Source: an uncultured Bacteriovoracaceae bacterium
GTDB taxonomy: Bacteria; Bdellovibrionota; UBA2428
Length of the DNA stretch: 64,000 nt
Direction: 5' to 3'
Assembly: GCA_964407615.1 (NCBI GenBank)
Contig: CAYOWH010000002.1
Location: 3,472-67,471, forward strand
The notes beneath the pieces were generated by a model, which saw only the letters and a program-made list of their open reading frames with translations, had not been told where the DNA came from and searched no databases. Every line of letters begins with the position of its first letter. Positions within the stretch are counted from its first letter, which is position 1. Shown here one piece after another: positions 35,288 to 50,214 of this stretch. The translations under genes were made by a program, and so were the position numbers.

Positions 35288-38200
35288 TTATAATACTTTT
35301 TGGGGACCAGTATTTGTTACTCTATATACAGTGCCATTTTCTCTATGAATGAGAGAATCTTCCCCAGCAATTTGAACAGATGATGTAACGTTTTTCATAT
35401 TAAATCTCTTAAAAAATGGCGTATTAACAGGAAAATCTGGTGGAAATACATCAGCCTTATAACCACCAAAATATACATAATTATCAGAATCTAAGTAACC
35501 AATCATAGTTTGATCTTTGACAGCATTATCGGAAACAAATATATCTATAGCATTATCAACCGTAGAAGATTTATCATAATTATAACATTGCGTAGGCGAT
35601 GTGATTGCAATATCTATAATAGAATTTACTAAACATTGACCTATGTCAACTCCATTATATCCCCAAGAAAATAATCTGCCATCCTTTAATAATGCAAAAA
35701 TTGTAGGGTTATCTTTTCCAGAAACTATTACCTTTTTAACATTTGACAATTCTTCTATTCTTTCAAAATTATTATATGTAACAGTAGAAGTAGAACCTTT
35801 TCCCATTTGACCAAAATTATCGTCACCACAAACCCATAAATAACCTTCTCGATCTATATAATAATTATTTAAATGTCCGCTATACAATCCATCAGATAAT
35901 AAATCTGCATCGTTGATTTCTGATGTTACTCCTCCAAAACTTTTTTTACATATTTCAAATTTAAAATGTGAATGATTGTGCGATGCTTCTGCCACAGGCG
36001 CAGCACCTCTTCCCAGTTGTCCTCTGGTATTAGTTCCAGCTGACCGAATCTTTCCATCTTTAGTAATTATAGTGAGCAAACTAGAAGTGCCATCAGAAGC
36101 AGTTATGGCATAATCTTTAATCTGCCCAGAAAATTGTTTTATTTTAGTTGGATTTATAGATACCATAGCAGCAGCAGTTGCTCCACTTTTACCATAACCT
36201 ATTCCAAATGCGCCATGTCTACTATACCCCCAAACCCATAAACTATCATCGATATCTAATGCGGCAAAAAATGGATAGTTTGTCCCAATTCTTTTAAAAG
36301 ATTTAAATTTAACTTCTTTTTCATTTTCTAAAATAATAGTTTTTATAAATCCAGCAGTAGATTTATTTGTCATGTTTCCTATTCCAAAAGCACCTCTAGA
36401 ATTATTATTATAAAATACGATATCTTTAGAAGAAGATCCTGTATTAATATAACCGACTCTATCGCCAAGAGTATCTGTAAAATATAAATAATTAGAATCT
36501 TGATCTAAATATAACGCCATTGGCTTCCAATTTATAACACTTTTTGTAGTATCTAAATTTCCTTTCACTGATCCTGAAAATAATGATACATTATTTGGAA
36601 AATCAGTATTTGATTTGACAATTACATGACTCGTTTGCGAAAGTATATATAAATTTTTTCCTATAGCCTCAATTGAGGCGGGGTTTGGGACACCAGCTAA
36701 CGATCCGACTCCATATTTTAAAGATTTTCTTGCAGGAGCACCAATAATAGTATCCACCTTTTTTGTTCCAGACAACTCTACAGTTCTAATAGAATTACTA
36801 TTATACTCAGCTATATACAACATATCACCAAGTAATTTTATACTCTTTCGAAGTTTTCCAAATTTAGCATTCAATCCGTTAGTAGCATTTTGATAGCCTT
36901 CAGACGATCCAGCAATAGTTGTAACTGGATGATTTGGTGTCGCAAAATCAACTTGTCTTATAGCAATGCTATCCGAAAAATACAGTTTTTTAGTGACTTT
37001 ATCGTATGCCATTCCTGTAGGATATCCTAAGTTAGCCTTTAATGCACTTAAGCTATCAGCAGTATTTATAACTCCCGTACCAGCAACTGTTGTCACAGGA
37101 TAATTGCCACTTAAAACTATTTTCCTAATACGTCCCGTATCTGAAACAAATAATGCAGAAACTCCATCATATTCAATTTGCACAGGTGCCAAAAATTTAG
37201 AGCCAGTTCCAATAGGACCATCCAAAAAACCGCTTGCCCCCGTACCAGCTATAATACTTAAACTAGGAGTAGTTGCCGTTAAATTAATCATCTTAATATT
37301 AAAATTACCAGTATCTACTATATATAATCTATTATCAATAAATCTTAATCCCCTAGGATCTTTGAAGCTAGCTTTAGACAAAATACCCGTAGCATTACCA
37401 GCAGCACCAGTTCCAGCAAATTTAAATGCGGATACTATTCCAGTAGTACTGTCGATAACAATTTTTTTAATATTAAAATTTGCAGTATCTGATACATAAA
37501 ATGTATTATCATTTTCCCCTCTGCAAATATCCGTAGGAGCATTAAAAGCAGCAGCAAGATAAACATCCCCAGCAACATATGTTGAAACGGCAGACGTGGA
37601 AGTGTTTAATGTTCTGATACATTTATTTTCAGTATCCGCAATATATAATGTAGATCCATCATTACTAATTGCTAATCCAGTCGGAGTATTAAATCTTGCA
37701 TTTGTTCCTATTGCATCTGTAACACCAGCAGCTCTGGAACTTCCAGCTATAGTATTTACATACCATTTATCTGTAGGTCTTTCTAATTCAGTCGTAGTTA
37801 ATTTTCTAATTCTGTGATTATCTGAAACATACATTATGTTTCTATTTGTGGGATCTATTACTATTTTTCTGGGGGAATGAAATCTTGCGGTATACCTTTC
37901 GCCATTAGCATCACCACTTAATGCTACAGTTCCCCTTTGAATACCAGATACACCAGCTATTATAACAGTATTTTTATCAGTATCGTTTTTAATTCTTCTG
38001 ATATTATGATTTAAATTATCACACACATAAATGTCCCCAGTACTTAAATCTTGTGCTATACCATTTGGAGTATTAAATCTGGAAGCACTTCCAGTTCCCG
38101 GAATTCCACCTTTTTGTCCATCTGTAGCATTGTTATTAGCTGTCGGGCTTCCTGCAATGTCTATAACATTACCCAAATAATCTATAAATTTTATTTGATG

Positions 38201-39553
38201 ATCACATGAAACTATATATTGTTCTTTTACACTAAGACCATTCACATTCGATGATGGAATACCACTCAACTCAACTTTATTAGATATAATATCTGATGGT
38301 AAAGGAATGGCAGATAATGGATTAATATATCTAAACTCAATTTCAGGAATTATTTTTCTAATTCCCCCATTTTTCGCCTCTGCTATCACTATATAATCCC
38401 TATCATTAGAAATAGTTATACCTCTAGGATCTATATATGCAGTAGACAACTCACCAACATTAGTTCCACAAACCCAAATATCACCCCCAGCTTCGATGTC
38501 TTCGTCTGGATATACTAAAGCTACGCCACTACTAACATTCCAAGATAATGCGCCTATAGAAGCTGTTTTATTTTCATCTAAATAATCGCCTCCATAAGGG
38601 GCATATTTTTTAGAATCTTTATATCCATCATATAATTTCCAAAAAGGAACTCTAACATTTAATGTAGGTATTACAGTAGTAATAACAGAACCTCCGAATT
38701 TTGATGGATGCAAATTACCCCAAGCAATAACTCTATTATCATTAGTCAAAGCTGCATATCCACTAGATGCCTGTGATAAATTAGCCAAATATTTAATATA
38801 GCCCTGTTCAACAATAATAGTCTTTTCGGGAGAATTAACTACCCAAGATTTTAAATTATTATTAAAACTAATATTTGCCATATCCGGATATGGCAAATTT
38901 TCAGGATCTACATTATTAAAATTCTCCGGTGAAATTCTTTTTCGCACCCATTTTTCATCCAAATAAATTATAGTACTTCCACTAATAGCGTCTACATTTG
39001 ATATAGATAAACCATTTGAATCAATATCCAATCCACCATTTGGTTTAATTATATTACCTAATTTATCAGTAGTAACTGCTTTATCTACTAACTTTACAGT
39101 AGATACAGAATTTGAAGAAAGTTTATCAATAGTAACTGAATTCGAAGCTAATTTTAAATCAGTGACAGAAAAATCATTCAATTTATCAGTAGTAACTGCT
39201 TTATCTACTAACTTTACAGTAGATACAGAATTTGAAGAAAGTTTATCAATAGTAACTGAATTCGAAGCTAATTTTAAATCAGTGACAGAAAAATCATTCA
39301 ATTTATCAGTAGTAACTGCTTTACTGTTAATTGAAGCGGTAGTGACTGTATTATTTGCTAAATTAATATTATAACTTTTACTAGGATCAAAATAAGCGGA
39401 TACTTTATTATTTAAGTTAATATTATTAACTATAAAATTTTCAATATTACTTAATCTTGTAGAATATGTAGATAACCCTTGATACAATGGGAAATAATCT
39501 CCTCCCGATAATTTTGCCACTTCATCTAATTGATTTATTCTTTTATTCGCCAT
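35288..39553 (-). CDS. giant tail-fibre/adhesin protein (about 1421 aa): tail-fibre repeats, then NHL-repeat beta-propeller, then RCC1-like beta-propeller
   Basis: N-terminal repeats AVTTDKLNDFSVTDLKLASNSVTIDKLSSNSVSTVKL. NHL-like YVSDNHRIRKL / YVCDNLNHNIRRI / YVSDTANFNIKKI / YIVDTGNFNIKMI. RCC1-like WVWGYSRHGAFGIG / GTNTRGQLGRG / CGDDNFGQMGKG / WGYNGVDIGQ. Track start 39574 is TTG, so I use ATG 39553. Confidence 0.7.
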   Translation of the reverse strand: MANKRINQLDEVAKLSGGDYFPLYQGLSTYSTRLSNIENFIVNNINLNNKVSAYFDPSKSYNINLANNTVTTASINSKAVTTDKLNDFSVTDLKLASNSVTIDKLSSNSVSTVKLVDKAVTTDKLNDFSVTDLKLASNSVTIDKLSSNSVSTVKLVDKAVTTDKLGNIIKPNGGLDIDSNGLSISNVDAISGSTIIYLDEKWVRKRISPENFNNVDPENLPYPDMANISFNNNLKSWVVNSPEKTIIVEQGYIKYLANLSQASSGYAALTNDNRVIAWGNLHPSKFGGSVITTVIPTLNVRVPFWKLYDGYKDSKKYAPYGGDYLDENKTASIGALSWNVSSGVALVYPDEDIEAGGDIWVCGTNVGELSTAYIDPRGITISNDRDYIVIAEAKNGGIRKIIPEIEFRYINPLSAIPLPSDIISNKVELSGIPSSNVNGLSVKEQYIVSCDHQIKFIDYLGNVIDIAGSPTANNNATDGQKGGIPGTGSASRFNTPNGIAQDLSTGDIYVCDNLNHNIRRIKNDTDKNTVIIAGVSGIQRGTVALSGDANGERYTARFHSPRKIVIDPTNRNIMYVSDNHRIRKLTTTELERPTDKWYVNTIAGSSRAAGVTDAIGTNARFNTPTGLAISNDGSTLYIADTENKCIRTLNTSTSAVSTYVAGDVYLAAAFNAPTDICRGENDNTFYVSDTANFNIKKIVIDSTTGIVSAFKFAGTGAAGNATGILSKASFKDPRGLRFIDNRLYIVDTGNFNIKMINLTATTPSLSIIAGTGASGFLDGPIGTGSKFLAPVQIEYDGVSALFVSDTGRIRKIVLSGNYPVTTVAGTGVINTADSLSALKANLGYPTGMAYDKVTKKLYFSDSIAIRQVDFATPNHPVTTIAGSSEGYQNATNGLNAKFGKLRKSIKLLGDMLYIAEYNSNSIRTVELSGTKKVDTIIGAPARKSLKYGVGSLAGVPNPASIEAIGKNLYILSQTSHVIVKSNTDFPNNVSLFSGSVKGNLDTTKSVINWKPMALYLDQDSNYLYFTDTLGDRVGYINTGSSSKDIVFYNNNSRGAFGIGNMTNKSTAGFIKTIILENEKEVKFKSFKRIGTNYPFFAALDIDDSLWVWGYSRHGAFGIGYGKSGATAAAMVSINPTKIKQFSGQIKDYAITASDGTSSLLTIITKDGKIRSAGTNTRGQLGRGAAPVAEASHNHSHFKFEICKKSFGGVTSEINDADLLSDGLYSGHLNNYYIDREGYLWVCGDDNFGQMGKGSTSTVTYNNFERIEELSNVKKVIVSGKDNPTIFALLKDGRLFSWGYNGVDIGQCLVNSIIDIAITSPTQCYNYDKSSTVDNAIDIFVSDNAVKDQTMIGYLDSDNYVYFGGYKADVFPPDFPVNTPFFKRFNMKNVTSSVQIAGEDSLIHRENGTVYRVTNTGPQKVL
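39061..39323. repeat. perfect 120-bp tandem duplication (2 copies plus about 23-bp partial third) inside the 1421-aa fibre gene
   Basis: 39061-39180 is identical to 39181-39300. Each unit holds two diverged about 60-bp subunits. Encodes duplicated KLNDFSVTDLKLASNSVTIDKLSSNSVSTVKLVDKAVTTD. Confidence 0.9.
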
Positions 39554-39561
39554 AACCTTAT

Positions 39562-42500
39562 TTATATCTTCCAATATACATTATTATCAAATACTATATA
39601 ATCATCATTTTCAATATTAACATATTCTGATGTAACATTTAACTTAGCCACGCTACTCCTCTGATCTGTCGAAACATCCATTATGACGACATAATACTCT
39701 CCAGTATCAAATAATTGCAAATCATTTTTATAATATATGGAATTAGTTTCCGAATCAATACTTCCGGTGTCAGTTCTCATCCATTGATACGTTAATGTAG
39801 ACGATGAAGTAGTTTTTATAGAAAACTGAATATTATCACCCACTTGTTTTTCAATAGGATATCCTAAATATTGCTTCCCATCAATATATAATGGATTTTT
39901 TAATCGTATTATTACATTATAATTTATTCCACCAGATAATGGAAGTTTATCCAGTCTAACCTTAGAATAATCTATAATTTCAATTATAGTTGTATCCAAA
40001 GGTAATATATCAGAAATTATTTCAGACCCCACAATTATACCTACAGTGCATCCTATATCCACAACATAACTGGTAGTGGATGTTTCAATTGAACTGTCAA
40101 TATAACTTACATTAACTAAAGAAGGATTTTTAACTTTAGTAGGACTTAAAGTAAAGTTATAGTTACTCCTATCTTTATATGTTTCATTTTGAAATGCTAA
40201 TAATCGTACATTTGATGGATCTAAATCTATGGGCGAAGTTATATTATAATCATTCGAATCCAATGATAGAGATTTTCTAAGTGGTGTAAAATTTGAAATG
40301 TAATACAACGCCTTTCCTTTAATAATTCTAAGATTAGATATATAACCATTATAATAACTCTCAGTCGGAGAGCATCCTATAAATAAATTATAATTAGTGT
40401 TATTAAAATTTTTATCAAAAAGACCACTATTCAACAATATTCCATCTACAAACAAATATACAATTCCAGATTTTCTAGTTACTGCTATATGATACCAAGT
40501 GTTCTTAATAAAATTAAATGAAGCACTAATATTGGGTTCTCCAACTATTACTTCATTAAATGAAAATCCAGTGTTTGCAATGTTTAAAGACCAAGTTCCA
40601 GAAGCTCCATCTCTTGTTTTCCTATTTGTCACAATTCTAGTCCCCCCACCATCTGGAAGATTATTCATAATATAAGCTTCAATAGTAAAGTCTTCGGTTC
40701 CAAATGCAAAAGCACTAAGATTTGTAGGTCTTTGAAATATTTCTATATATTGTGATTGAGATGAATCAAAATATCCTGCTGGTAAATAAAAATTTGATGT
40801 ATACAATACAGAACTTGGAACTATTTGCTTACTAATAGTAGGTGTTTCATATTCCAATTTACAAACTTCTCCGCCTCTATTTTCATAAAATTCAACTTGT
40901 ATATCATAAAATACGTTTGCGGTAAGGTTAATTGTGCCTGTAGTTGTTATAGGAGCAGTTATTATCCATTTATCTATAATTAGAACACCATTTACCCACA
41001 CCCTAACCCCATCGTCATGAGTAATATGAAATGTATAAAGTTCTGTTGTTGTTGGCTTTATATAACCTTTCCACCTCGCACTGAACGAATCTCTACCTCC
41101 ATTTACAAATGTACCAGTTCCCCAATTTGAATCACTATTAATATTTTCAATTACGGTAGATGATGGTGCTCCTGTTAATTCTTTATTATCCCAATATGCC
41201 GCAAATAAACCTGTTCCAGTAGTATTAGAAACCATACGCGGGCCACTAGGAGTACCACTTAATGTCAAATTATATTTATTGTCACTATTATCAAGAAACG
41301 TATCATCCTGTAGTGTTAACAATGAAGTCGAATAACCTGTTCCTTTTTCAGAAATTAATTTTGAATATAAAGAAGGTTTTGTAAATGTTGGAGAACCCTC
41401 ATAAAGAAGCTTGTCTGATATTCTAAAATTTGATATATATCCTTTAAAATTGGATTCCGTAATTGAACTAAATGGTGTAAAAGTTTCAATAGAAGGTGTT
41501 CCGACTATCGATAATGATTTTGCTGTTAAACTATTGTCTATGAATCTATTACTTTGCAACGTTAACAAAGAAACGTTTGACGGAATAGGGTTTACTACAT
41601 TTCCTGTTGCGTTTCCATTTGTTGATGTGGTAAGTGGAATAGTGCTTGGTTTAAATTCTCCTGTGTAAAGAGCTTGTCCTTTTGTTACTCGGAGGTCGGA
41701 AATATATCCACTTAGAGATACGTTTGCACTAGTATTATAATTACTACCAATCATAGGTCCGTATGTAATTCCGGGATTAATTGTCCCCCCAGCACTACTA
41801 TTAGTGTCAACTATAGTTCCATTTAAAAATGAATATAAGTTATTACCTGAGCGCACTAAAGCCACATGACACCAAGTGTTTAACGGAGGATTTGGTGATT
41901 TAACACTTTTATTTGTTGTTCCAATGTATATATCAGAACTTGTAGTGGTATCTGTAACATAAAGAACTACACTACTGGTTTGAGCAAGTTTACCATCAGT
42001 TTGACCACAATATATAATTGAGGTTCCTGCTTTCATTTTATACACCCATGCTTCAATAGTAAAATCTCCATCTCCAAAATGTAACGAATCTATATTTAAA
42101 TCTAATGTTAATTTCGAACTGCCATCAAAATACCCACTCCAACCATTTGTAGGAGTAGGCCCACCAAAAATATTTCCAATCGCTAAAGTATAAGGCGCAT
42201 CTGAAGTCGATGCTGTTCCAGATTTATTAAACGTTCCAGCAGATTGTCCATTTATATAATAATTTAAATTGCCTGATGCTAAAGAATCATCCCACATTAT
42301 AGCAACATGAGACCATGTATTGGCAGTTAACGAAACACTAGAACTGCTGTTAGATATTGGAGCTGAAGCTGTAATTTTACTTCCTATAATAAATTTCGAC
42401 CCATTAGATATCCAAAACCCTAATGTTCCATTGTTTTGAAGAATTATAGACATTCCCGGTTTACTAGAAGAATTATAATTTGTGTCTAATAATGTTTGAT

Positions 42501-44670
42501 CTGTTCCTATATCAGTAGGATATATCCAAAATTCAATAGTATATTTAGAATTTTTAGTATGTAAGAACTTCCAATCAGAATCTTTTCCAGCACTTAAATA
42601 TCCAGTACCATCAAAATACGAACTCCAACCTAAATTTGTTATAATTCTAGAAACTTTAGATGTATCTGGAACAGAGACTTCCGCATCAACATTAATTGTA
42701 TTTGCGATAGCAAGTTTATCAATTCTAAAAGAAGTAAGGTTTATAATTTCAGATATAATAGAATCATTAGGAATTCCGATAGATTTTATTTTAGCACAAA
42801 CTAATAATGAAGATGTGTTAAAAGTGGACAATATATTACTATTTGTCAATGTACTCACTAATAAAGAAGATATAATTGTATCTATTAATATCTCAACATC
42901 AATTTGAGTAGCAGTAGCATCATAAAATATTTCAAATTCAGTATCACTAATAATTTTAGTTATAAATGAACCATCTGGTATATTTGGACCACTAACTCTC
43001 ATTCCAACACTTATACCATCAGTACTTTGTACCACAATTACCTTACTATCTTTTGTGGTTTTCGCTAACATTCTCTTCTTGGAGGCAAATCTAACAGTTA
43101 CATTAAATCCATCATCAGAAGCAACATTACTAACAATTACAGTGTTGAAATCATCAATTCTAACCACCACTGTATTTTTAGGAAATAAACTTGTAACAAC
43201 ATCCATCCCTAAAAATATGCCAACTGTAGATGGGACTTTTATCGTATTACTATTTTTTAATACAGTACAATTATCAACATTTGAAGCAGGTATTATATCC
43301 GCTACAATATCATAAACCGCTCCACCCTCTACTGTGTTGTTATTAATCCTTATTGTTGTAGGACTAATTAATTCCGTTATTTTAGAATCTATGGGTATTT
43401 TAGGACCCGAAATTCTCATTCCGGGGACTAAATATGGAGTTTCCGTAATAGTTAAAACATCCGTATATTTAGTAACATCAACTCTATTTATTGTAACTGA
43501 TGTCGATAAATTAGCTATACTTTTGCCGGTAGACAATGCAAGTGTGTTTATCCCAAATGTACTTTCATCAGTAATTGAATTTATTAAACTTGACGATAAT
43601 ATGTAAGGAAGTTGTGTCGTATATGAATATATTGGACCCGTATCTGTCAATATTTGATTGATTTCAGGGTTATATATCCTCATTCCAGTACATAATTTTT
43701 TAGCAGTTTGCCCTAAATTAACCCATTTTTTATCTATAGTTACAGTACTATTATTTTGTATAGTATCAATATATGCAGTTGTTATAAAATTATCATCAAA
43801 TTTTATAGTACTATCCAATACAACTTTAGCAGTTTTACTTATAGAACTTACATTTGTGATATTAGTTATTACGCAATCGTAATCTCCTACAAAACTCCTG
43901 TTTACAATAGGTTCAAAATATACACATGTTAATACATTTACATCTGTCAATGTGGTTAATGTATCCGGTATTTCTACTTTATTTTTTCTCCAATAAAATG
44001 TAGCTGGATATGCTCCACTAATTTCACATTTTAATGTTAAAGTTCCATTAGGAATTATTTTAACATTTTCTGGATCTTTAGTTACTTTTATAGGATAAAT
44101 TAAATCTAAATTTACTTTATTTGATGTTATAGAAGTTTTTGCATTTGAAACTATGCAATAATATTGTCCTAATTTTAATTCAGTTACATCAAAAACAGTT
44201 AAACTTTTTGTAAAAGTTAACAAAGATTTATTTTCATAAAACCACTCTACTGTTGGACTCCCTCCACCTTCATAATCTATAAAAAATACAGCATTTTCAT
44301 TTCTTTTTACAAATAATGGACTTGGTTGTAATGTTATAGCCAAAGGAGCAAATACTTGTAAAGTAACGATATCACTCTTAACGCTACCTGCTAAATTTGT
44401 TATTAAGCAAAAATAAGATCCACTGTCATTCTGAGATGCATTTTGTAATTTTAAATTTGATGAAGTTGCTCCAACAATTGGAGAATTATCTTTAAACCAC
44501 TGATAAGTTATTGGCCTTGTACCTCTAGCAAAAACTTCGAAAGTGTAATTATCTGAATATTCTATCACCCCACCTACAGGTTGTTTGATTATTTTAACAT
44601 TTTTTACGGAGCCATATCTTATGTTAGATATCCCACTAAAATGCTTTAACCCTGTAAAATATCCTCCCAT
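39562..44670 (-). CDS. giant multidomain adhesin-like protein (1702 aa): 3 N-terminal Ig(I-set)-like domains, 3 LamG/ConA-like lectin domains, a PA14 domain, C-terminal Ig-like domain
   Basis: Ig-like: [13 protein letters not shown]...[26 protein letters not shown]...[24 protein letters not shown]...[12 protein letters not shown], C-terminal [11 protein letters not shown]...[12 protein letters not shown]. LamG-like: YTIEFWIYP...[19 protein letters not shown]...[28 protein letters not shown]...[19 protein letters not shown]. PA14: [14 protein letters not shown]...[24 protein letters not shown]. Confidence 0.65.
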   Translation of the reverse strand: [1702 protein letters not shown]

Positions 44671-44674
44671 ATTA

Positions 44675-46174
44675 TTATGCTACATTAATAACTATCCAAG
44701 AACTACCATCATAAACAAATTTAGAATAATTTGTCACATTTTGTAATAATACACCATAGTAATCATTTACTTGTACTACGTGCCCGCCACCCGGTAATCT
44801 ATAAGATACTTCATAAATTAATCCAATATTATTTGAATTAATAAGAGGTAAATTTAAATTTACAATACAATTATCAGCACTAACTGCCCAAAATTTCGGA
44901 GAATCGACATTTAAACTTAACGTCGTGTTTATGTTATAATAAACAGCTGTTAAATTTACGTATGTCGATTTAGGTCTTTGCCATTGTGATGAATTAGCAG
45001 TTAATGAAGTATAAGATTGATTCCAATTACCAGATGTATTTGTTAATGCTGTATAAGACTGGTTCCAATTCGAAGAAGTGGCAGTTAATGAAGTATACGA
45101 TTGATTCCAATTACCAGATGTAGTTGTTAATGCTGTATACGATTGATTCCAATTACCAGAAGTGGTCGTCAGTGCAGTATACGATTGATTCCAATTACCA
45201 GATGTATTTGTTAATGCTGTATAAGACTGGTTCCAATTACCAGAAGTGGTCGTCAGTGCAGTATACGATTGATTCCAATTTGAAGAAGTGGCAATTAATA
45301 CTGCATAAGATTGATTCCAGTTAGCGGAAGTATTTGTTAATATAGTATAAGATTGACTCCAATTAGAAGAATTGGCAGTTAATACTGTGTATGTTTGATC
45401 CCATTTAGCGGAATTTGAAGTTAATGTGGTATATGATTGATTCCAATTACCAGAAATTGACTGTAGATTATTTAAAATTGGGGAAACTATAGATCCCTGT
45501 ACTACAAGATCATCAACCGTAGTTATTCCACTAACAGATAAATTTTTACTTAATATAAAATTTTCGGATGCACTTAAATCTAATCCAAATTTTATATTAG
45601 TTTTATTAATTTCTAAACAATCATCTTTTAAATTAGAAGAAAATTTAGCAATAATATTATTCGTTGACGAATTCTGTTTTACAGATAATGTCGGACTAAT
45701 AGAACTATTATTATTTGAAATGTTTATATAATTATTTGATGAAATATAATTAGATACAGTTAAAATCCCAGTAACATTTAAAGCATCACTTATTTTAGTT
45801 TGAGGGGTATTTAAAAATACCCCATTTGCATATGATATTGTTAATGTGTTGTTCCCATTTCCCAAAACTACAGAATCTGATAAAATTGTTTCAGTGGAAG
45901 TTCCGGATAATTGAGTTATATACAATATATCTTCCACTGTCATCTCTCCAACAACTTTAGCATTCCCACCAACTTCAAATCCATCTTGTATTTTTGCGGA
46001 TAATAATTCTATCCCTGAACTTGCGCTTAATACCCCATTTACTACAAAATCTCCCTGAAAAGGTTCTTCTCTAGAAGCAATTGGATCCGTAGCACTATCC
46101 GGAAATCCTATTGTAGGAATCGAATGGTGATTTTTTCTATGTAATTTATCATGAAATCTTGCATTTCCGGCCAT
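44675..46174 (-). CDS. fibre protein (499 aa) with about 12 tandem 14-aa repeats (WNQSYTALTxTSGN)
   Basis: ATG start. The repeat block is encoded by 42-bp DNA repeats. Confidence 0.7.
   Translation of the reverse strand: MAGNARFHDKLHRKNHHSIPTIGFPDSATDPIASREEPFQGDFVVNGVLSASSGIELLSAKIQDGFEVGGNAKVVGEMTVEDILYITQLSGTSTETILSDSVVLGNGNNTLTISYANGVFLNTPQTKISDALNVTGILTVSNYISSNNYINISNNNSSISPTLSVKQNSSTNNIIAKFSSNLKDDCLEINKTNIKFGLDLSASENFILSKNLSVSGITTVDDLVVQGSIVSPILNNLQSISGNWNQSYTTLTSNSAKWDQTYTVLTANSSNWSQSYTILTNTSANWNQSYAVLIATSSNWNQSYTALTTTSGNWNQSYTALTNTSGNWNQSYTALTTTSGNWNQSYTALTTTSGNWNQSYTSLTATSSNWNQSYTALTNTSGNWNQSYTSLTANSSQWQRPKSTYVNLTAVYYNINTTLSLNVDSPKFWAVSADNCIVNLNLPLINSNNIGLIYEVSYRLPGGGHVVQVNDYYGVLLQNVTNYSKFVYDGSSWIVINVA
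44975..45465. repeat. about 12 imperfect 42-bp tandem repeats (coding)
   Basis: ttccaattaccaga recurs at 45021, 45063, 45105, 45147, 45189, 45231, 45273, 45315... Confidence 0.85.
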
Positions 46175-46179
46175 TCTAT

Positions 46180-46187
46180 TATTTATA
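46180..46187 (-). promoter_or_regulatory. T4-late-promoter-like TATAAATA box 5 nt upstream of the fibre ATG
   Basis: Minus strand reads TATAAATAatagaATG. Confidence 0.3.
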
Positions 46188-46330
46188 GAAATAAACCCAA
46201 TTTAATTAATAATGACATATTGATATTATTAATTTGATATAATTTATAAGTACTGATAAATAAAATATATTCCAGATTCATTTATATATCAATTGAACGA
46301 ATCTAGTTCTTGGGCATAATTAATTTTAAA

Positions 46331-46338
46331 TATAAATA
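46331..46338 (+). promoter_or_regulatory. T4-late-promoter-like TATAAATA box 5 nt upstream of the GTG of the lectin-like gene
   Basis: Plus strand reads TATAAATAttcttGTG. Mirror image of the box at 46180-46187. Confidence 0.3.
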
Positions 46339-46343
46339 TTCTT

Positions 46344-47123
46344 GTGTATAATAATATATCACATTTTTATGTTAAAGAGCTTTTTGATTCTAGTCATGAC
46401 GTAACATGGTCATTTCAGTACAGCTTATCGGGCAACAATAAAACTGACGGAGGATTTACTACATTTTTAAAATTATCTTCGCAAAATGCAGAATTAAATT
46501 CCGGTGGTGGTGGCGCATCTTTGGGTGTCGGATCAAAAGATGTGATTAATAAAATAGATAATATTTTATTTTGTGTGGCAATTGATAGTACGGGTTTATT
46601 TGGAACTAAGGCAACATTTCCTACTGGTTTAAATGCTCCTATAAAAAATAGCATGATTATAAGATTATTCAACGATTTAATTTATTTAACGGCTTTCCCA
46701 TTATCTTCGGTTGGACTTGATGGATTAAATTTGAATAACATATATAACACTATAAGAATAAATTACACAAATATAGGGGAAACTATTAATATAGCAAAAT
46801 TAAACAATATTACTAATGAATACGATACGTTTTTTTCATACACCACAAATTTTTCTAAAAAACTAAACGACCCAGTTCAAATAGGCTTTTCACACACATC
46901 GCCCATATTGCCTATAAATTTAAAATCAGTATTAACTTTAAAAGATATACATGCCCAAGGTCGATATGTATTTCCAAAATATGATAATTTATTTGAAAAA
47001 ATTTATGATAAAAATGGGAATTTTTTATATTATCTAAACCCTGATGGAGAAATATTATATAGTGATTCGGAATATAAAGAAAAATTAAAAGAACAAGTTG
47101 ATTTAATTGAAACTTCGGAATAA
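46344..47123 (+). CDS. L-type (legume-like) lectin / ConA-like fold protein (259 aa), GTG start
   Basis: NKTDGGFTTFLKL...NSGGGGASLGVG...FCVAIDSTGLFG parallels L-type lectin signatures ADGxAFFxAP...GGxLGL...VAVEFDT. No in-frame ATG for about 100 codons, and in-frame TAA at 46320. Confidence 0.5.
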   Translation: MYNNISHFYVKELFDSSHDVTWSFQYSLSGNNKTDGGFTTFLKLSSQNAELNSGGGGASLGVGSKDVINKIDNILFCVAIDSTGLFGTKATFPTGLNAPIKNSMIIRLFNDLIYLTAFPLSSVGLDGLNLNNIYNTIRINYTNIGETINIAKLNNITNEYDTFFSYTTNFSKKLNDPVQIGFSHTSPILPINLKSVLTLKDIHAQGRYVFPKYDNLFEKIYDKNGNFLYYLNPDGEILYSDSEYKEKLKEQVDLIETSE

Positions 47124-47202: not shown

Positions 47203-47445
47203 TTAATATAAGTGTTCTTCAACTTTTATATCATGCAGCATTCCATGATATCTGGCATCTAAATATTTTTGAAACTCTATAGGCTTAATCCATTTAAGAT
47301 TTCTATCTAAGTCTAATTTATGAGACAACTTATGGTTATTAATATAATGCATAGCTTCCAGAAGACAAAGCCATTTAGCATATGTAGATAATGACATATT
47401 AAACTTTTCACCATTGCTTAATTTTATATATAATTGTTTGTTCAT
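47203..47445 (-). CDS. hypothetical protein (80 aa)
   Basis: ATG ORF. ATGA overlap with the upstream gene stop. Confidence 0.4.
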   Translation of the reverse strand: MNKQLYIKLSNGEKFNMSLSTYAKWLCLLEAMHYINNHKLSHKLDLDRNLKWIKPIEFQKYLDARYHGMLHDIKVEEHLY

Positions 47446-47840
47446 ATTAAAAAGTTTTTACTAATATATGATAGCATAATTGTGTTTATAATATCCGAAG
47501 ATAAATCAACTTTATTGATAGCTAAAATAGATAAGCTTGATATAAGGTTATCAAAAACTTTTCTTATTGTCAAATTTTTTATATTATCCTCTTTATTTTC
47601 TGAGATAAATTCATCTCTAATAGTATTTAAAATACTAATTAAAACTTCTATTCCGGACATGGTCTTATTAGATTTCAACGAATGAAGCTCATACCAATCT
47701 AATAATTTTTTATCTTTCAATAAAAGAAATATTTTTATCTGCTTTTTCAATTCATCAGTCTCACTAGAATCGATATCTACATGTGTCAAGTTTGGCTTAA
47801 CGTGTTGCGCGTTTAATAATTCTTTAGATTGAAATTCCAT
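47442..47840 (-). CDS. hypothetical protein (about 132 aa; start moved to ATG 47840)
   Basis: Track start 47852 is GTG. In-frame ATG at 47840 lies just after the stop of the upstream gene. Confidence 0.4.
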   Translation of the reverse strand: MEFQSKELLNAQHVKPNLTHVDIDSSETDELKKQIKIFLLLKDKKLLDWYELHSLKSNKTMSGIEVLISILNTIRDEFISENKEDNIKNLTIRKVFDNLISSLSILAINKVDLSSDIINTIMLSYISKNFLI

Positions 47841-47841
47841 A

Positions 47842-48261
47842 TTATTCAGCACTTTGTTTTATTTTTTCAATAGCTTTAATAAGCTCCACATCTGCCGCAT
47901 CATTGTCTATAGGCTCCGTCGTTAAAAATGTCTTAACGTCGATATTAACAAATACATTTTTATTACATTCCAAACACTTATAATCATTATTTGAATTTAA
48001 TTTTATAGGAATAAAAACTTTATTTTCTTTATGGCAGGGACAAGTTACCTCCATTCCTTGTTTGGAAAACTCCTTTATCTTTTGAAGTTTAAGGTTTTCC
48101 ACGTAAAGATATACAATCTTTAAATAAATTTGATATAAAATTATTTGAATAACTGTAGATAATAAAAAATATTTAAAAAAACTATATATGTCATTATATA
48201 ATAATAAAGATACAGTTAAGCTTACAATAAATAACGCCGAAAGGCTTCTCAAAATATTCAT
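47842..48261 (-). CDS. small membrane protein with 2 predicted N-terminal transmembrane helices and C-terminal Cys-rich zinc-ribbon-like motif (139 aa)
   Basis: LSALFIVSLTVSLLLY and FLLSTVIQIILYQIYLKIV hydrophobic helices. TCPCHKEN...YKCLECNK. Confidence 0.45.
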   Translation of the reverse strand: MNILRSLSALFIVSLTVSLLLYNDIYSFFKYFLLSTVIQIILYQIYLKIVYLYVENLKLQKIKEFSKQGMEVTCPCHKENKVFIPIKLNSNNDYKCLECNKNVFVNIDVKTFLTTEPIDNDAADVELIKAIEKIKQSAE

Positions 48262-48291
48262 CTATTTAATATATCATAATTAATATATTTT

Positions 48292-48654
48292 TCAATCAAA
48301 CATTTGTAAATATCTAGGCAATTCTTTCAACAAAAAAGAATTTATAAGATGAAGAGAATCTATACTCTTTTTAAGAGCCATTTTCTGAGGTTTAGTTATG
48401 GAAGGATTTTCTAATGCCTTTTCAAAATCATTTCGCATCTTGATGGTTTTCTCCACCATATCTCCAGTATCACGTATAATATTATCTATCTCAAAAGGAA
48501 TCTGAGGTCTAGCATTTAAACTCCCAGATTTGGACATACTCTTGCTATTTCCGACCACGGTTGACATTTGACCATGATCCTCGGCAGCTTTCCCTATTCC
48601 CGTTATTTGTCTATCAGAATCTGCCATTATATACTCTAATAAATTTTTCTTCAT
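48292..48654 (-). CDS. hypothetical protein (120 aa)
   Basis: ATG ORF, first gene of the minus-strand small-gene cassette. Confidence 0.4.
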   Translation of the reverse strand: MKKNLLEYIMADSDRQITGIGKAAEDHGQMSTVVGNSKSMSKSGSLNARPQIPFEIDNIIRDTGDMVEKTIKMRNDFEKALENPSITKPQKMALKKSIDSLHLINSFLLKELPRYLQMFD

Positions 48655-48692
48655 TATAACTATTATTTATTAATTATACACTAAATAATTAC

Positions 48693-49145
48693 ATGATACA
48701 TCTATACGAAAAAACATTCAAAAAAGTTTTATCAGAAGCAGATGAAATGACAGATCTCGATGCGATGTCTAAAACTTTAGACACAAAAAAGTCTGGCGTA
48801 ACACCAGAAGATTTAGACGCGCAAACTCCAGATGATGGTATTCAATCTCAAGACAATGAATTAGTAGCTCACAATCAGCACATTAGTGCTATGCAGCAAA
48901 AAATGATTGGAGAATTGAAAGGATGGATTGATGAGTTGCAAAAATTTAGCAATTTCCTAAATGGAACTCACGAACAATCAATGCAAAGTAGATTAAAAAA
49001 TTGTGCTCCAGATTCCTTATTTGATAAAATTAGGATTGCCGAAACCAAGAAAATAGCCAGAGTATCTATGGAAGTAGTTTCCTTAAATGAAATGTTGAAA
49101 GGTTATTTAGCAAATTCCAAAGATCCCAAATTCTTGGGGGTCTAA
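48693..49145 (+). CDS. hypothetical protein (150 aa), plus-strand island gene
   Basis: ATG ORF. Stop overlaps the primase stop (convergent). Confidence 0.45.
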   Translation: MIHLYEKTFKKVLSEADEMTDLDAMSKTLDTKKSGVTPEDLDAQTPDDGIQSQDNELVAHNQHISAMQQKMIGELKGWIDELQKFSNFLNGTHEQSMQSRLKNCAPDSLFDKIRIAETKKIARVSMEVVSLNEMLKGYLANSKDPKFLGV

Positions 49146-50176
49146 AAATTTAAATTATATTTTTTTAATTTTAAAACACCTTCATCTCCGGTGAATGTGT
49201 TTTTTATTATCCATTCTGGAGTTATGTGCTGCATGTAACCCAACATTGCAATGTCATTAAAATCCTTACACAAATTTCCTATTTTTTTAGGCCAAATAAA
49301 TACATTGTACCCTTCTTGCAAAAGTTTTATGGATTTCACATAAGATGCTCTATCTTTATGTTGCGAATCTAATACCCATACAATATTATGAAATGGATAT
49401 AATCTCAACTGGTCATGTTGAATTCCTTTAAAAATTTTATTGCTATTTTCCTGAATACCTCCTATAGCTACTCCATTTTTAATAAAAGTGGAATCAAATG
49501 GACCTTCGAAAACAAAAATATTATCGTAATCGCTATCAATATTATTATAATTAAATAGGCAAGAATTTCCTCCAATTTTTGTAAGATACCTTATTCCAGT
49601 ATCAGTCAAATCCCTAGACTGATAGGTTAAAACCTTATCCCTCTCATCAAAAAAAGGTATAATTAATCTATTTTTATGATATTTGTCGTCTAAAGAAATA
49701 AAATATTTTTTTGGCCTATTAACAGCTACGTCCAACTTTCTTTTCTTTAAAAATTCCAAAGCTAGTTTGACATGTTTATTATTTCTATAATAATCCAATT
49801 GATTGTTATCAAACAAATTAATTTCATTCAAAGGTAAATCAGGAATTTCTATGGGCTTTTTTTCTTCAATAAAAACCGCATTTGAAGATGACACCGAATC
49901 TCCAGAACAAAATAATTTATAATCAGCTAGTAATTGTATGAAATTTATATTGGATACTCTCAAAATCCAATCAATTGGCGGCATCGTAACAGAACAATTT
50001 AGACAAGATATTCTGTTATATTCAGGAACATATGCACACCTTTTCTTTTTACCAAAAGAATTACCCTCCCTACATAATGGACAACATCCTACATATTTAT
50101 CATTATCTCTATTATAAGATGAATACGGAGATAACTGAAGAAACTTATATGATATATATTCTCTTGGAAACTTCAT
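49142..50176 (-). CDS. DNA primase, T4 gp61-like (zinc ribbon plus Toprim). Start moved to ATG 50176.
   Basis: CCPLCREGNSFGKKKRCAYVP...ISCLNCSVTM zinc ribbon. FVFEGPFDSTFIKNGVAIGG matches T4 gp61 VVLEGPIDSLFLPNAVAM. Track start is TTG. Confidence 0.7.
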   Translation of the reverse strand: MKFPREYISYKFLQLSPYSSYNRDNDKYVGCCPLCREGNSFGKKKRCAYVPEYNRISCLNCSVTMPPIDWILRVSNINFIQLLADYKLFCSGDSVSSSNAVFIEEKKPIEIPDLPLNEINLFDNNQLDYYRNNKHVKLALEFLKKRKLDVAVNRPKKYFISLDDKYHKNRLIIPFFDERDKVLTYQSRDLTDTGIRYLTKIGGNSCLFNYNNIDSDYDNIFVFEGPFDSTFIKNGVAIGGIQENSNKIFKGIQHDQLRLYPFHNIVWVLDSQHKDRASYVKSIKLLQEGYNVFIWPKKIGNLCKDFNDIAMLGYMQHITPEWIIKNTFTGDEGVLKLKKYNLNF

Positions 50177-50214
50177 CAAGAGATATCATGCCATAAATGG
50201 CTAAAAATTCAAGT

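Follow-up and report, generated by a model that had tools for sequence, protein, structure and literature searches.

A phage protein family with a predicted, divergent legume-type lectin fold beside the tail-fibre genes of an uncultured T4-like myovirus

The legume lectins (PF00139), among them peanut lectin (2PEL) and Maackia amurensis leukoagglutinin (1DBN), stand closest among described proteins to the product of a gene at positions 46344 to 47123 of a 64,000-nucleotide stretch of contig CAYOWH010000002.1, the whole of which we call the window. Both have the same β-sandwich fold, connected by a sequence-profile link and by collinear motifs (SFxY, GGF..FL, the GGxxLG loop, V.(E/A)FD and (I/F)G(F)S), whereas the window protein is 13–16% identical to legume lectins, scores below the Pfam gathering score, is phage-encoded, carries a 50-residue C-terminal tail and has altered metal and sugar residues. 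The fold also exists outside plants: Emp46p, Emp47p and VIP36 (PF03388, Lectin_leg-like) and a Methanocaldococcus (M. jannaschii) protein (7ELV) are equally good fold matches, with template modelling (TM) scores up to 0.59, but have no significant sequence match to the window protein. Some of these cargo-receptor and archaeal L-type lectins have reduced or altered metal dependence, and they keep the Asp/Asn sugar ligands, whereas the window family has no Asp at the aligned position. A precedent for non-sugar use of the lectin fold is provided by arcelin, which does not bind sugar, and the α-amylase inhibitor, whose metal and sugar loops are degenerate. Arcelin-1 (1AVB) is among our top 25 fold matches, although these are plant defence proteins with no virion link, and we saw no direct sequence match to them.

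In phages, the nearest comparison is with concanavalin A (ConA)-like and Laminin_G_3 (PF13385) fibre domains, which belong to the same broad superfamily and share the genomic context, three of them lying in a 1,702-residue neighbour of the window protein. Matches of the window protein in BFVD include distal tail proteins, minor tail proteins and tail fibres, yet its family is separate, unnamed, and without a matching model in Pfam, PHROGs or NCBIfam. The N-terminal anchors of phage fibres and the T4 adaptors gp9, gp35 and gp36 resemble it by functional analogy only: there, too, a conserved N-terminal module is combined with swappable distal domains, and a small conserved gene sits in the fibre operon, but neither sequence nor fold relates them to the window protein. 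The fibres of the clade to which the window belongs have an N-terminal motif of their own, MxDSFIxxLxES..DYTVFD..TKK, which the lectin-fold protein lacks. Host-recognition clusters next to gp14 in Pelagimyophage and cyanomyophage carry ConA-type domains (PMC7029224), and we found no literature on L-type or legume lectins in phages.

The open reading frame (ORF) is a real conserved gene, and its product can be divided as follows, the second and third features being assigned from structural models.

46344..47123, + strand: gene of the lectin-fold protein, 259 amino acids, GTG start, TAA stop (from the ORF list, homologue N-termini and the orthologue in the closest syntenic relative, locus L004)
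46344..46964, + strand: predicted L-type-lectin-fold β-sandwich domain, residues 1–207 (from AlphaFold models, Foldseek and the span of the family profile)
46965..47120, + strand: C-terminal tail, residues 208–259, modelled as three short strands and a helix at 241–258, with a predicted local distance difference test (pLDDT) score of 59–82

Structural and profile comparisons support the placement of this protein as a very divergent member of the L-type (legume-type) lectin fold superfamily, as a reading of the DNA made from its sequence only (the sequence-only reading) had proposed. AlphaFold2 returned a model with a pLDDT of 84.3 from a 20-sequence alignment and one with a pLDDT of 91.5 and a predicted TM score of 0.81 from a 94-sequence alignment, with identical secondary structure. 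For both models, the top 50 Foldseek matches in the PDB are all L-type lectin-fold proteins, at a probability of 1.00, led by peanut lectin 2PEL (E 1.7e-7 and 5.4e-8, TM 0.53–0.60, about 215 aligned columns). Emp46p, Emp47p and the M. jannaschii legume-lectin domain recur with both models, VIP36 with the first and arcelin with the second, while generic viral ConA-like domains in BFVD match more poorly than legume lectins (E 1e-5 to 1e-3, TM 0.3–0.45).

The sequence link to the lectins appears modest but specific. Searched against 177,635 PDB sequences, a 94-sequence family profile gave nine matches at E ≤ 10, all of them legume lectins and the best 1DBN at E 3.5e-4; the single sequence and a 20-sequence profile returned no lectin from PDB sequences, only noise (GAPDH, OCP). 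Aligned by hhalign with a profile of peanut lectin (its sequence verified against the PDB) and three other legume lectins, the family reached E 0.047 with the shallow alignment and E 1.8e-4, at a probability of 48%, with the deep one. The proposed comparison with Lectin_legB (PF00139) stood in that this is the top Pfam match (E 0.022), and fell short in that its 14.7 bits lie below the gathering threshold of 26.3 bits. Lectin_legB is, moreover, the only Pfam family matched by more than two members (5 of 94 at E ≤ 1, best E 8e-5).

The family is large and unnamed. A word-indexed search yielded 20 homologues at 28–67% identity, all unnamed and without a precomputed Pfam domain, and a profile search of 1.84 billion representatives yielded 348 clusters (representatives at 50% identity) at E ≤ 1e-3 and 57 at E ≤ 1e-30. 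IMG/VR viral contigs contributed 38 loci of the family, and in more than 35 phage contigs a homologue occupies the equivalent place. In BFVD, the closest match (E 4.6e-13) is to an uncharacterised protein from an uncultured Caudovirales phage, whereas in 50,697 GenBank phage records, tblastn searches with three divergent family members turned up no relative. Given a large conserved family, a chance ORF in AT-rich DNA was rejected. An antisense ORF of 85 amino acids inside the gene (46415–46672, − strand) was likewise rejected as a real gene and is almost certainly spurious, as conservation tracks the + frame. The domain is intact in the window protein, with all near-invariant residues present, and no second copy lies elsewhere in the window. 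Some members carry large insertions inside the domain, of about 40 residues in the region of the Gly-rich loop (P0013–P0020) and far larger after the WSFQY strand in a protein of 594 residues (L028, 6801–8585), which suggests that the loops tolerate, or serve for, inserted modules.

What the family has kept of a lectin's binding site can be read from three stretches, each of which is present in the protein as the sequence-only reading quoted it.

46443..46475, + strand: motif TDGGFTTFLKL, residues 34–44, aligned with lectin P-A-D-G-I-I-F-F-I
46503..46529, + strand: Gly-rich loop GGGGASLGV, residues 54–62, aligned with lectin GGGTLGV (loop B)
46569..46595, + strand: strand FCVAIDSTG, residues 76–84, aligned with lectin VGVEFDTY

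The residue equivalences, given in peanut lectin numbering, come from hhalign and HMMER alignments, not from superposition, and conservation was counted over 147 domains of the family. The proposed register of the motifs is right for GGxLGL and VAVEFDT and, in every profile alignment, one residue off for ADG: peanut P81-A82-D83-G84 falls on T34-D35-G36-G37, so that the sugar-binding Asp83 is met by G36 and not by D35. Position 35 is Q, E, D or S in the family and position 36 is G, A, H or Y, with G37 kept in 86%. Loop B, a main-chain sugar contact in peanut lectin (GGGTLGV), is matched by GGASLGV, a conserved Gly-rich loop in which G54, G57, L60 and G61 are kept in 70–83% of the domains. The Mn ligand Glu121 is replaced by A79 (G or A in the family), and the Ca/Mn ligand Asp123 is retained as D81, an Asp in 141 of the 147 domains (96%). 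No counterpart of the Ca/Mn ligands Asp132 and His137 is conserved in the family, and Asn127, a Ca ligand and sugar contact, falls on N102 (kept in 87%) in one alignment only and on nothing in the HMMER alignments. The 13-residue metal-binding loop of the lectins gives way to a loop of 21 residues with conserved residues of its own (T83, G84, F86, G95 and N102).

The canonical residues that survive are thus D81 and the Gly-rich loop, and possibly N102. The sequence-only reading had named the conservation of the metal- and sugar-binding Asp/Asn as a check and had suggested that the protein may bind carbohydrate; most of the canonical residues are lost (Asp83 to G36, Glu121 to A79, Asp132 and His137 with no equivalent, N102 ambiguous), and with only D81, possibly N102, retained, the residues lend carbohydrate binding no support. 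These alignments do not allow it to be classed as a canonical Ca/Mn-dependent lectin. Outside the core, conservation peaks in the loops that build the lectin ligand site (B and C), and those that determine lectin specificity vary within the family.

The window encodes a T4-type large terminase, tail sheath, tail tube and a gp14-like neck protein, which identify it as a T4-like myovirus, with a G+C content of 24–32% and with best terminase matches among GenBank phages that are only about 37% identical. The lectin-fold gene is divergent from a fibre-like gene, as had been proposed, and its surroundings include the following features.

44675..46174, − strand: fibre-like gene of 499 amino acids, a divergent and conserved neighbour (tblastn synteny in at least 20 loci)
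39562–44670, − strand: fibre/adhesin-like protein of 1,702 amino acids, with three Ig domains, three Laminin_G_3 domains and PA14
35288–39553, − strand: fibre/adhesin-like protein of 1,421 amino acids, with NHL and RCC1-like repeats
46310..46319, + strand: TTGGGCATAA, intergenic in the window and identical to a gene end in L004

When the window proteins were searched by tblastn against related loci, about 35 of the 45 loci fetched showed a fixed gene order. It runs from the terminase (−) and the gp14-like neck gene (+) through fibre genes (−) that end with the homologue of the 499-residue protein, to the lectin-fold gene (+) and a variable stretch with zero to two large fibre genes on the + strand, and then to four small conserved genes (−), a gene of 150 amino acids (+) and the primase (−). 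In most loci, a lectin-fold gene of 230–310 amino acids is followed by two large genes of 320–1,200 amino acids on the same strand, the first of which has the typical fibre N-terminus MxDSFIxxLxES..DYTVFD..TKK. The window has the shortest cassette among the loci examined, with the lectin-fold gene alone and 79 base pairs (bp) to the next conserved gene. In L004, whose neighbouring genes are 60–84% identical to those of the window, the syntenic gene encodes 880 amino acids, the lectin-fold domain being joined to Ig domains. The lectin-fold proteins of the two loci are 64% identical, against 49–50% for the big fibres, a core-gene rate of evolution for the lectin-fold protein and a faster one for the fibres.

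The association with fibre genes that the sequence-only reading had noticed is therefore one that synteny preserves across the clade, and the lectin-fold gene appears, from this synteny, to be the constant edge of a variable tail-fibre cassette. The region of the lectin-fold gene corresponds to the hypervariable cluster for host recognition that earlier work on T4-like marine phages located beside gp14 (PMC7029224).

Several details of this neighbourhood deserve record in their own right. The tract TTGGGCATAA is, in L004, the last 10 nucleotides (..W A stop) of a gene of 430 amino acids with Cadherin_5 and Big_9 domains that precedes the orthologue; in the window it could be either the relic of a deleted gene or a conserved signal. 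Inside the 499-residue fibre gene, a 42-bp tandem repeat of 10.9 copies (45000–45455, 74–83% matches, − strand) encodes about eleven 14-residue units (SGNWNQSYTALTxT), and the N-terminus of its product (MAGNARFHDKLHRKNHHS..DPIASREEPFQGDF) is kept in L004. The 1,702- and 1,421-residue proteins bring eukaryote-like adhesion domains into a phage host-recognition cluster, and the N-terminus of the latter (MANKRINQLDEVAKLSGGDYFPLYQ) loosely resembles the fibre motif of the related loci. The mechanical start of its ORF (35288–39574, − strand) is a TTG at 39574, and TATAAATA-N5-ATG argues for the ATG at 39553 as the true one. Downstream of the lectin-fold gene, the block at 47203–50179 is strictly syntenic in about 35 related loci (80, 136, 139 and 120 amino acids on the − strand, 150 on the + strand, then the primase on the − strand), and its five small proteins had no PHROG match.

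Across the family, 98 of 153 full domains stand alone, 48 lie N-terminal to long extensions, six are internal and one is C-terminal. The extensions carry Ig, Laminin_G_3, RCC1-like and Calx-beta domains, the same repertoire as in the 1,702- and 1,421-residue fibre proteins of the window, and one family protein of 7,882 amino acids has five matched stretches and a hydrophobic C-terminus. C-termini are very heterogeneous, and many stand-alone members stop right after the last strand. In the window, the tail reads LYYLNPDGEILYSD before its helix and, by eye, resembles the YILQSP..HILLSD tail of nearer relatives. Also by eye, stand-alone tails (P0004–P0010, P0023, P0088 and P0114) have in common a hairpin-like motif, (F/Y)(Y/I)L(Q/N)(S)P..(H/E)IL(L/Y)(S/A)D, and other subfamilies end in ..QDEHIILT or ..FTTISGISA. 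Such tail motifs may be docking peptides.

The start of the gene leads to a second observation, on its expression. The frame opens after a TAA at 46317–46319, the eight codons before the GTG at 46344 include no ATG, GTG or TTG, and the next in-frame start-type codon is a TTG at codon 60, whose use would remove family-invariant residues, so that GTG 46344 is the only usable start. The N-termini of the 20 homologues are in register with it (MYNNISHF against MANNVSNF and MNTNISNF), and the L004 orthologue is likewise GTG-initiated, 5 nucleotides after TATAAATA. That the only start is a GTG preceded by a sequence box, as had been observed from the sequence, is thus confirmed by the frame itself and by the relatives. 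The boxes concerned are these.

46331..46338, + strand: TATAAATA, the T4 late-promoter consensus, ending 5 nucleotides upstream of GTG 46344
46180..46187, − strand: TATAAATA, 5 nucleotides upstream of the ATG of the divergent 499-residue fibre gene
46331–46346 (+), 46187–46172 (−), 39566–39551 (−), 22118–22103 (−) and 54197–54182 (−): spans of TATAAATA-N5-start
16150 (+), 33465 (−), 56310 (+) and 50424 (−): examples of box–start pairs with one mismatch

TATAAATA as such is no more frequent in the window than chance predicts (21 copies, with 29 expected), and five of its 21 copies lie exactly 5 nucleotides before the starts of long ORFs, at 46344, 46174, 39553 (the 1,421-residue fibre), 22105 and 54184. 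With one mismatch allowed, a spacer of 5 occurs 16 times, and each of the other spacers between 0 and 12 occurs 0–4 times. Across 252 kb of sequence from 16 related loci, with ORFs of at least 80 amino acids counted, NNTAAATA precedes an ORF start at a spacer of 5 in 63 cases, at a spacer of 6 in 28, and at any other spacer in at most 9; these cases include orthologues of the lectin-fold gene and downstream fibre genes. TATAAATA-N5-GTG is kept base for base in L004, and TAAATA boxes lie 5–8 nucleotides from the start in nearly all related loci examined, with L003 a clear exception.

The T4 late-promoter consensus spans about −13 to −6, so that, at a spacing of 5 nucleotides, transcription would start on the initial base of the start codon. 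The clade-wide placement of TAAATA boxes 5–6 nucleotides from starts suggests leaderless late messenger RNAs (mRNAs). Alternatively, the TAAATA or TATAAATA box could be an AU-rich translation signal used in place of a Shine–Dalgarno sequence, the usual position of which it occupies. Under either reading, its placement supports the GTG start and would be in keeping with co-regulation with the fibre genes. We found no description in the literature of such an abutment of TAAATA and start codon or of leaderless late mRNAs in T4-like phages. At the other end of the gene, no intrinsic terminator was found, and the 3′ region shows no significant folding.

Taking these lines together, we consider the protein probably a late, surface-exposed component of the fibre apparatus. 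In the mechanism that we propose, this gene of an uncultured aquatic T4-like myovirus, presumably a late one, would be transcribed from the T4-type late promoter TATAAATA that abuts its GTG, giving a leaderless or nearly leaderless mRNA if transcription starts where the box predicts. Residues 1–207 would form a divergent L-type lectin β-sandwich and residues 208–259 a short tail of hairpin and helix, and the protein would take its place on the surface of the virion as part of the fibre apparatus. The sandwich would there serve as a constant adaptor or anchor module, its conserved face of loops docking on a conserved virion or fibre partner, with no canonical Ca/Mn-dependent sugar binding. In relatives, the same module carries variable Ig, LamG, RCC1 or Calx-beta distal domains, and the window has its minimal, stand-alone version.

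We favour this role of constant adaptor or anchor over those of a glycan-binding adhesin and a chaperone, if tentatively and at somewhat less than even confidence, on four grounds. Of 55 multi-domain members, 48 have the domain at the N-terminus, which is the virion-proximal end in tail fibres; the protein keeps the evolutionary pace of core genes, and the fibres have diverged more quickly (64% against 49–50% identity to L004); the gene stays constant while everything downstream is swapped; and the canonical sugar and metal residues are gone.

A number of points weigh against it. The loss of those residues is read from alignments, not superposition, and conserved loops B and C flanked by variable specificity loops would fit a remodelled glycan-binding site equally well. 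The repeats in the anchored protein of 7,882 amino acids look like a generic extracellular binding module, and an anchor without extensions calls for a further supposition, namely that other fibres attach to it. Furthermore, BLAST finds no resemblance between the fused C-terminal parts and the fibre genes that follow stand-alone copies, so that the argument from fusion (Rosetta stone) for a direct interaction with those fibres fails. No gp55-like late sigma factor was seen among the 10 small window ORFs scanned, and no cultured phage in the 50,697 records has a member of the family, its association with the virion being presumed.

The strongest competitor, a serious one that we regard as less likely than not, is that the protein is a true carbohydrate-binding adhesin, an accessory of the virion that stands there alone or at the tip of Ig/LamG stalks. 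It would recognise a polysaccharide of the host envelope or of the environment by means of a remodelled site, perhaps dependent on Ca only or on no metal, in which D81, N102 and the Gly-rich loop stand in for the canonical triad. Both fold and homology point specifically to sugar-binding lectins and not to generic ConA-like domains, the loops of the lectin site keep D81, N102/S103 and GGxxLG between variable flanking loops, and position 35, beside that of the Asp, is Q, E or D in 71% of members. L-type lectins can bind sugar with reduced metal dependence, and Emp46p, in metal-free and K+-bound forms, and Emp47p are among the fold matches, although so is the non-sugar-binding arcelin. The occurrence of the domain in giant surface proteins and the location of the gene in a host-recognition cluster would also suit an adhesin. 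Against this stand the Gly, Ala, His or Tyr at the position of the sugar-binding Asp, the missing Glu and His ligands of Mn and the want of a conserved counterpart for Asp132; N102 does fall on the sugar- and Ca-binding Asn127 in one alignment, but the equivalence is absent from the HMMER alignments. Core-gene-like evolution is unlike that of a host-range determinant, and a mostly N-terminal position in fusions would put the domain at the virion-proximal end.

It is improbable that the protein has some other, non-structural role (for example, on the host envelope during infection) or is what degeneration has left of a once longer fibre gene that shed its distal domains. That no locus examined has a shorter cassette than the window, that the syntenic orthologue in L004 has 880 residues with Ig domains and that a 10-nucleotide relic of a neighbouring gene suggests local deletions would all be expected of a remnant, but 98 of 153 family members stand alone, the domain is intact with every near-invariant residue present, the promoter box and start are its own and are conserved, and the 50-residue tail has its like in other stand-alone members.

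A role as chaperone, suggested by the sequence-only reading, in which the protein would help the neighbouring tail fibres to fold or attach as an assembly or accessory factor and would not stay in the virion, is very improbable and fits the context poorly: a small conserved gene that adjoins fibre genes and is co-regulated with them through the same late-type box might encode one, but known fibre chaperones are encoded downstream of their fibre, whereas the lectin-fold gene lies upstream of or divergent from the fibre genes, no chaperone family was matched in Pfam, PHROGs or NCBIfam, and 48 of 153 domains sit N-terminal to arrays of Ig, LamG or RCC1 domains, which, together with the repeats in a giant surface protein, argues for a structural surface module and not a released chaperone.

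That ConA-like domains occur in phage host-recognition proteins is well known, and the fold assignment is in itself ordinary. What is new is an unnamed and widespread phage family that is related specifically to legume-type lectins and has a degenerate active site, its standing as the constant landmark of a variable fibre cassette, and the clade-wide abutment of late-type boxes and start codons. It may even be, although we think the whole of this doubtful, that a large clade of uncultured aquatic T4-like myoviruses has taken over an unnamed, phage-borne branch of the L-type lectin superfamily and made it the constant module, universal in the clade, of a host-recognition cassette whose other parts are swapped. 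Every late or fibre gene there would be driven by a T4-type TAAATA box exactly 5–6 nucleotides from its start codon, and the late mRNAs, GTG-initiated ones included, would be leaderless.

Late promoters have been hard to find in related marine phages (PMC7029224), and the fixed spacing of box and start offers a testable explanation for why they have been elusive there, while pointing to leaderless late translation in a T4-like lineage. For a family widespread in aquatic phage metagenomes (348 clusters), the present analysis provides a predicted fold and a likely place in the virion. As a conserved landmark for the boundary of a hypervariable host-recognition cluster, the gene could help to delimit and compare fibre cassettes in metagenomes. 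Should the domain prove to bind glycans, the reach of legume-type lectins would extend to host recognition by phages; should it be an anchor, a lectin fold would once more have been reused for protein docking.

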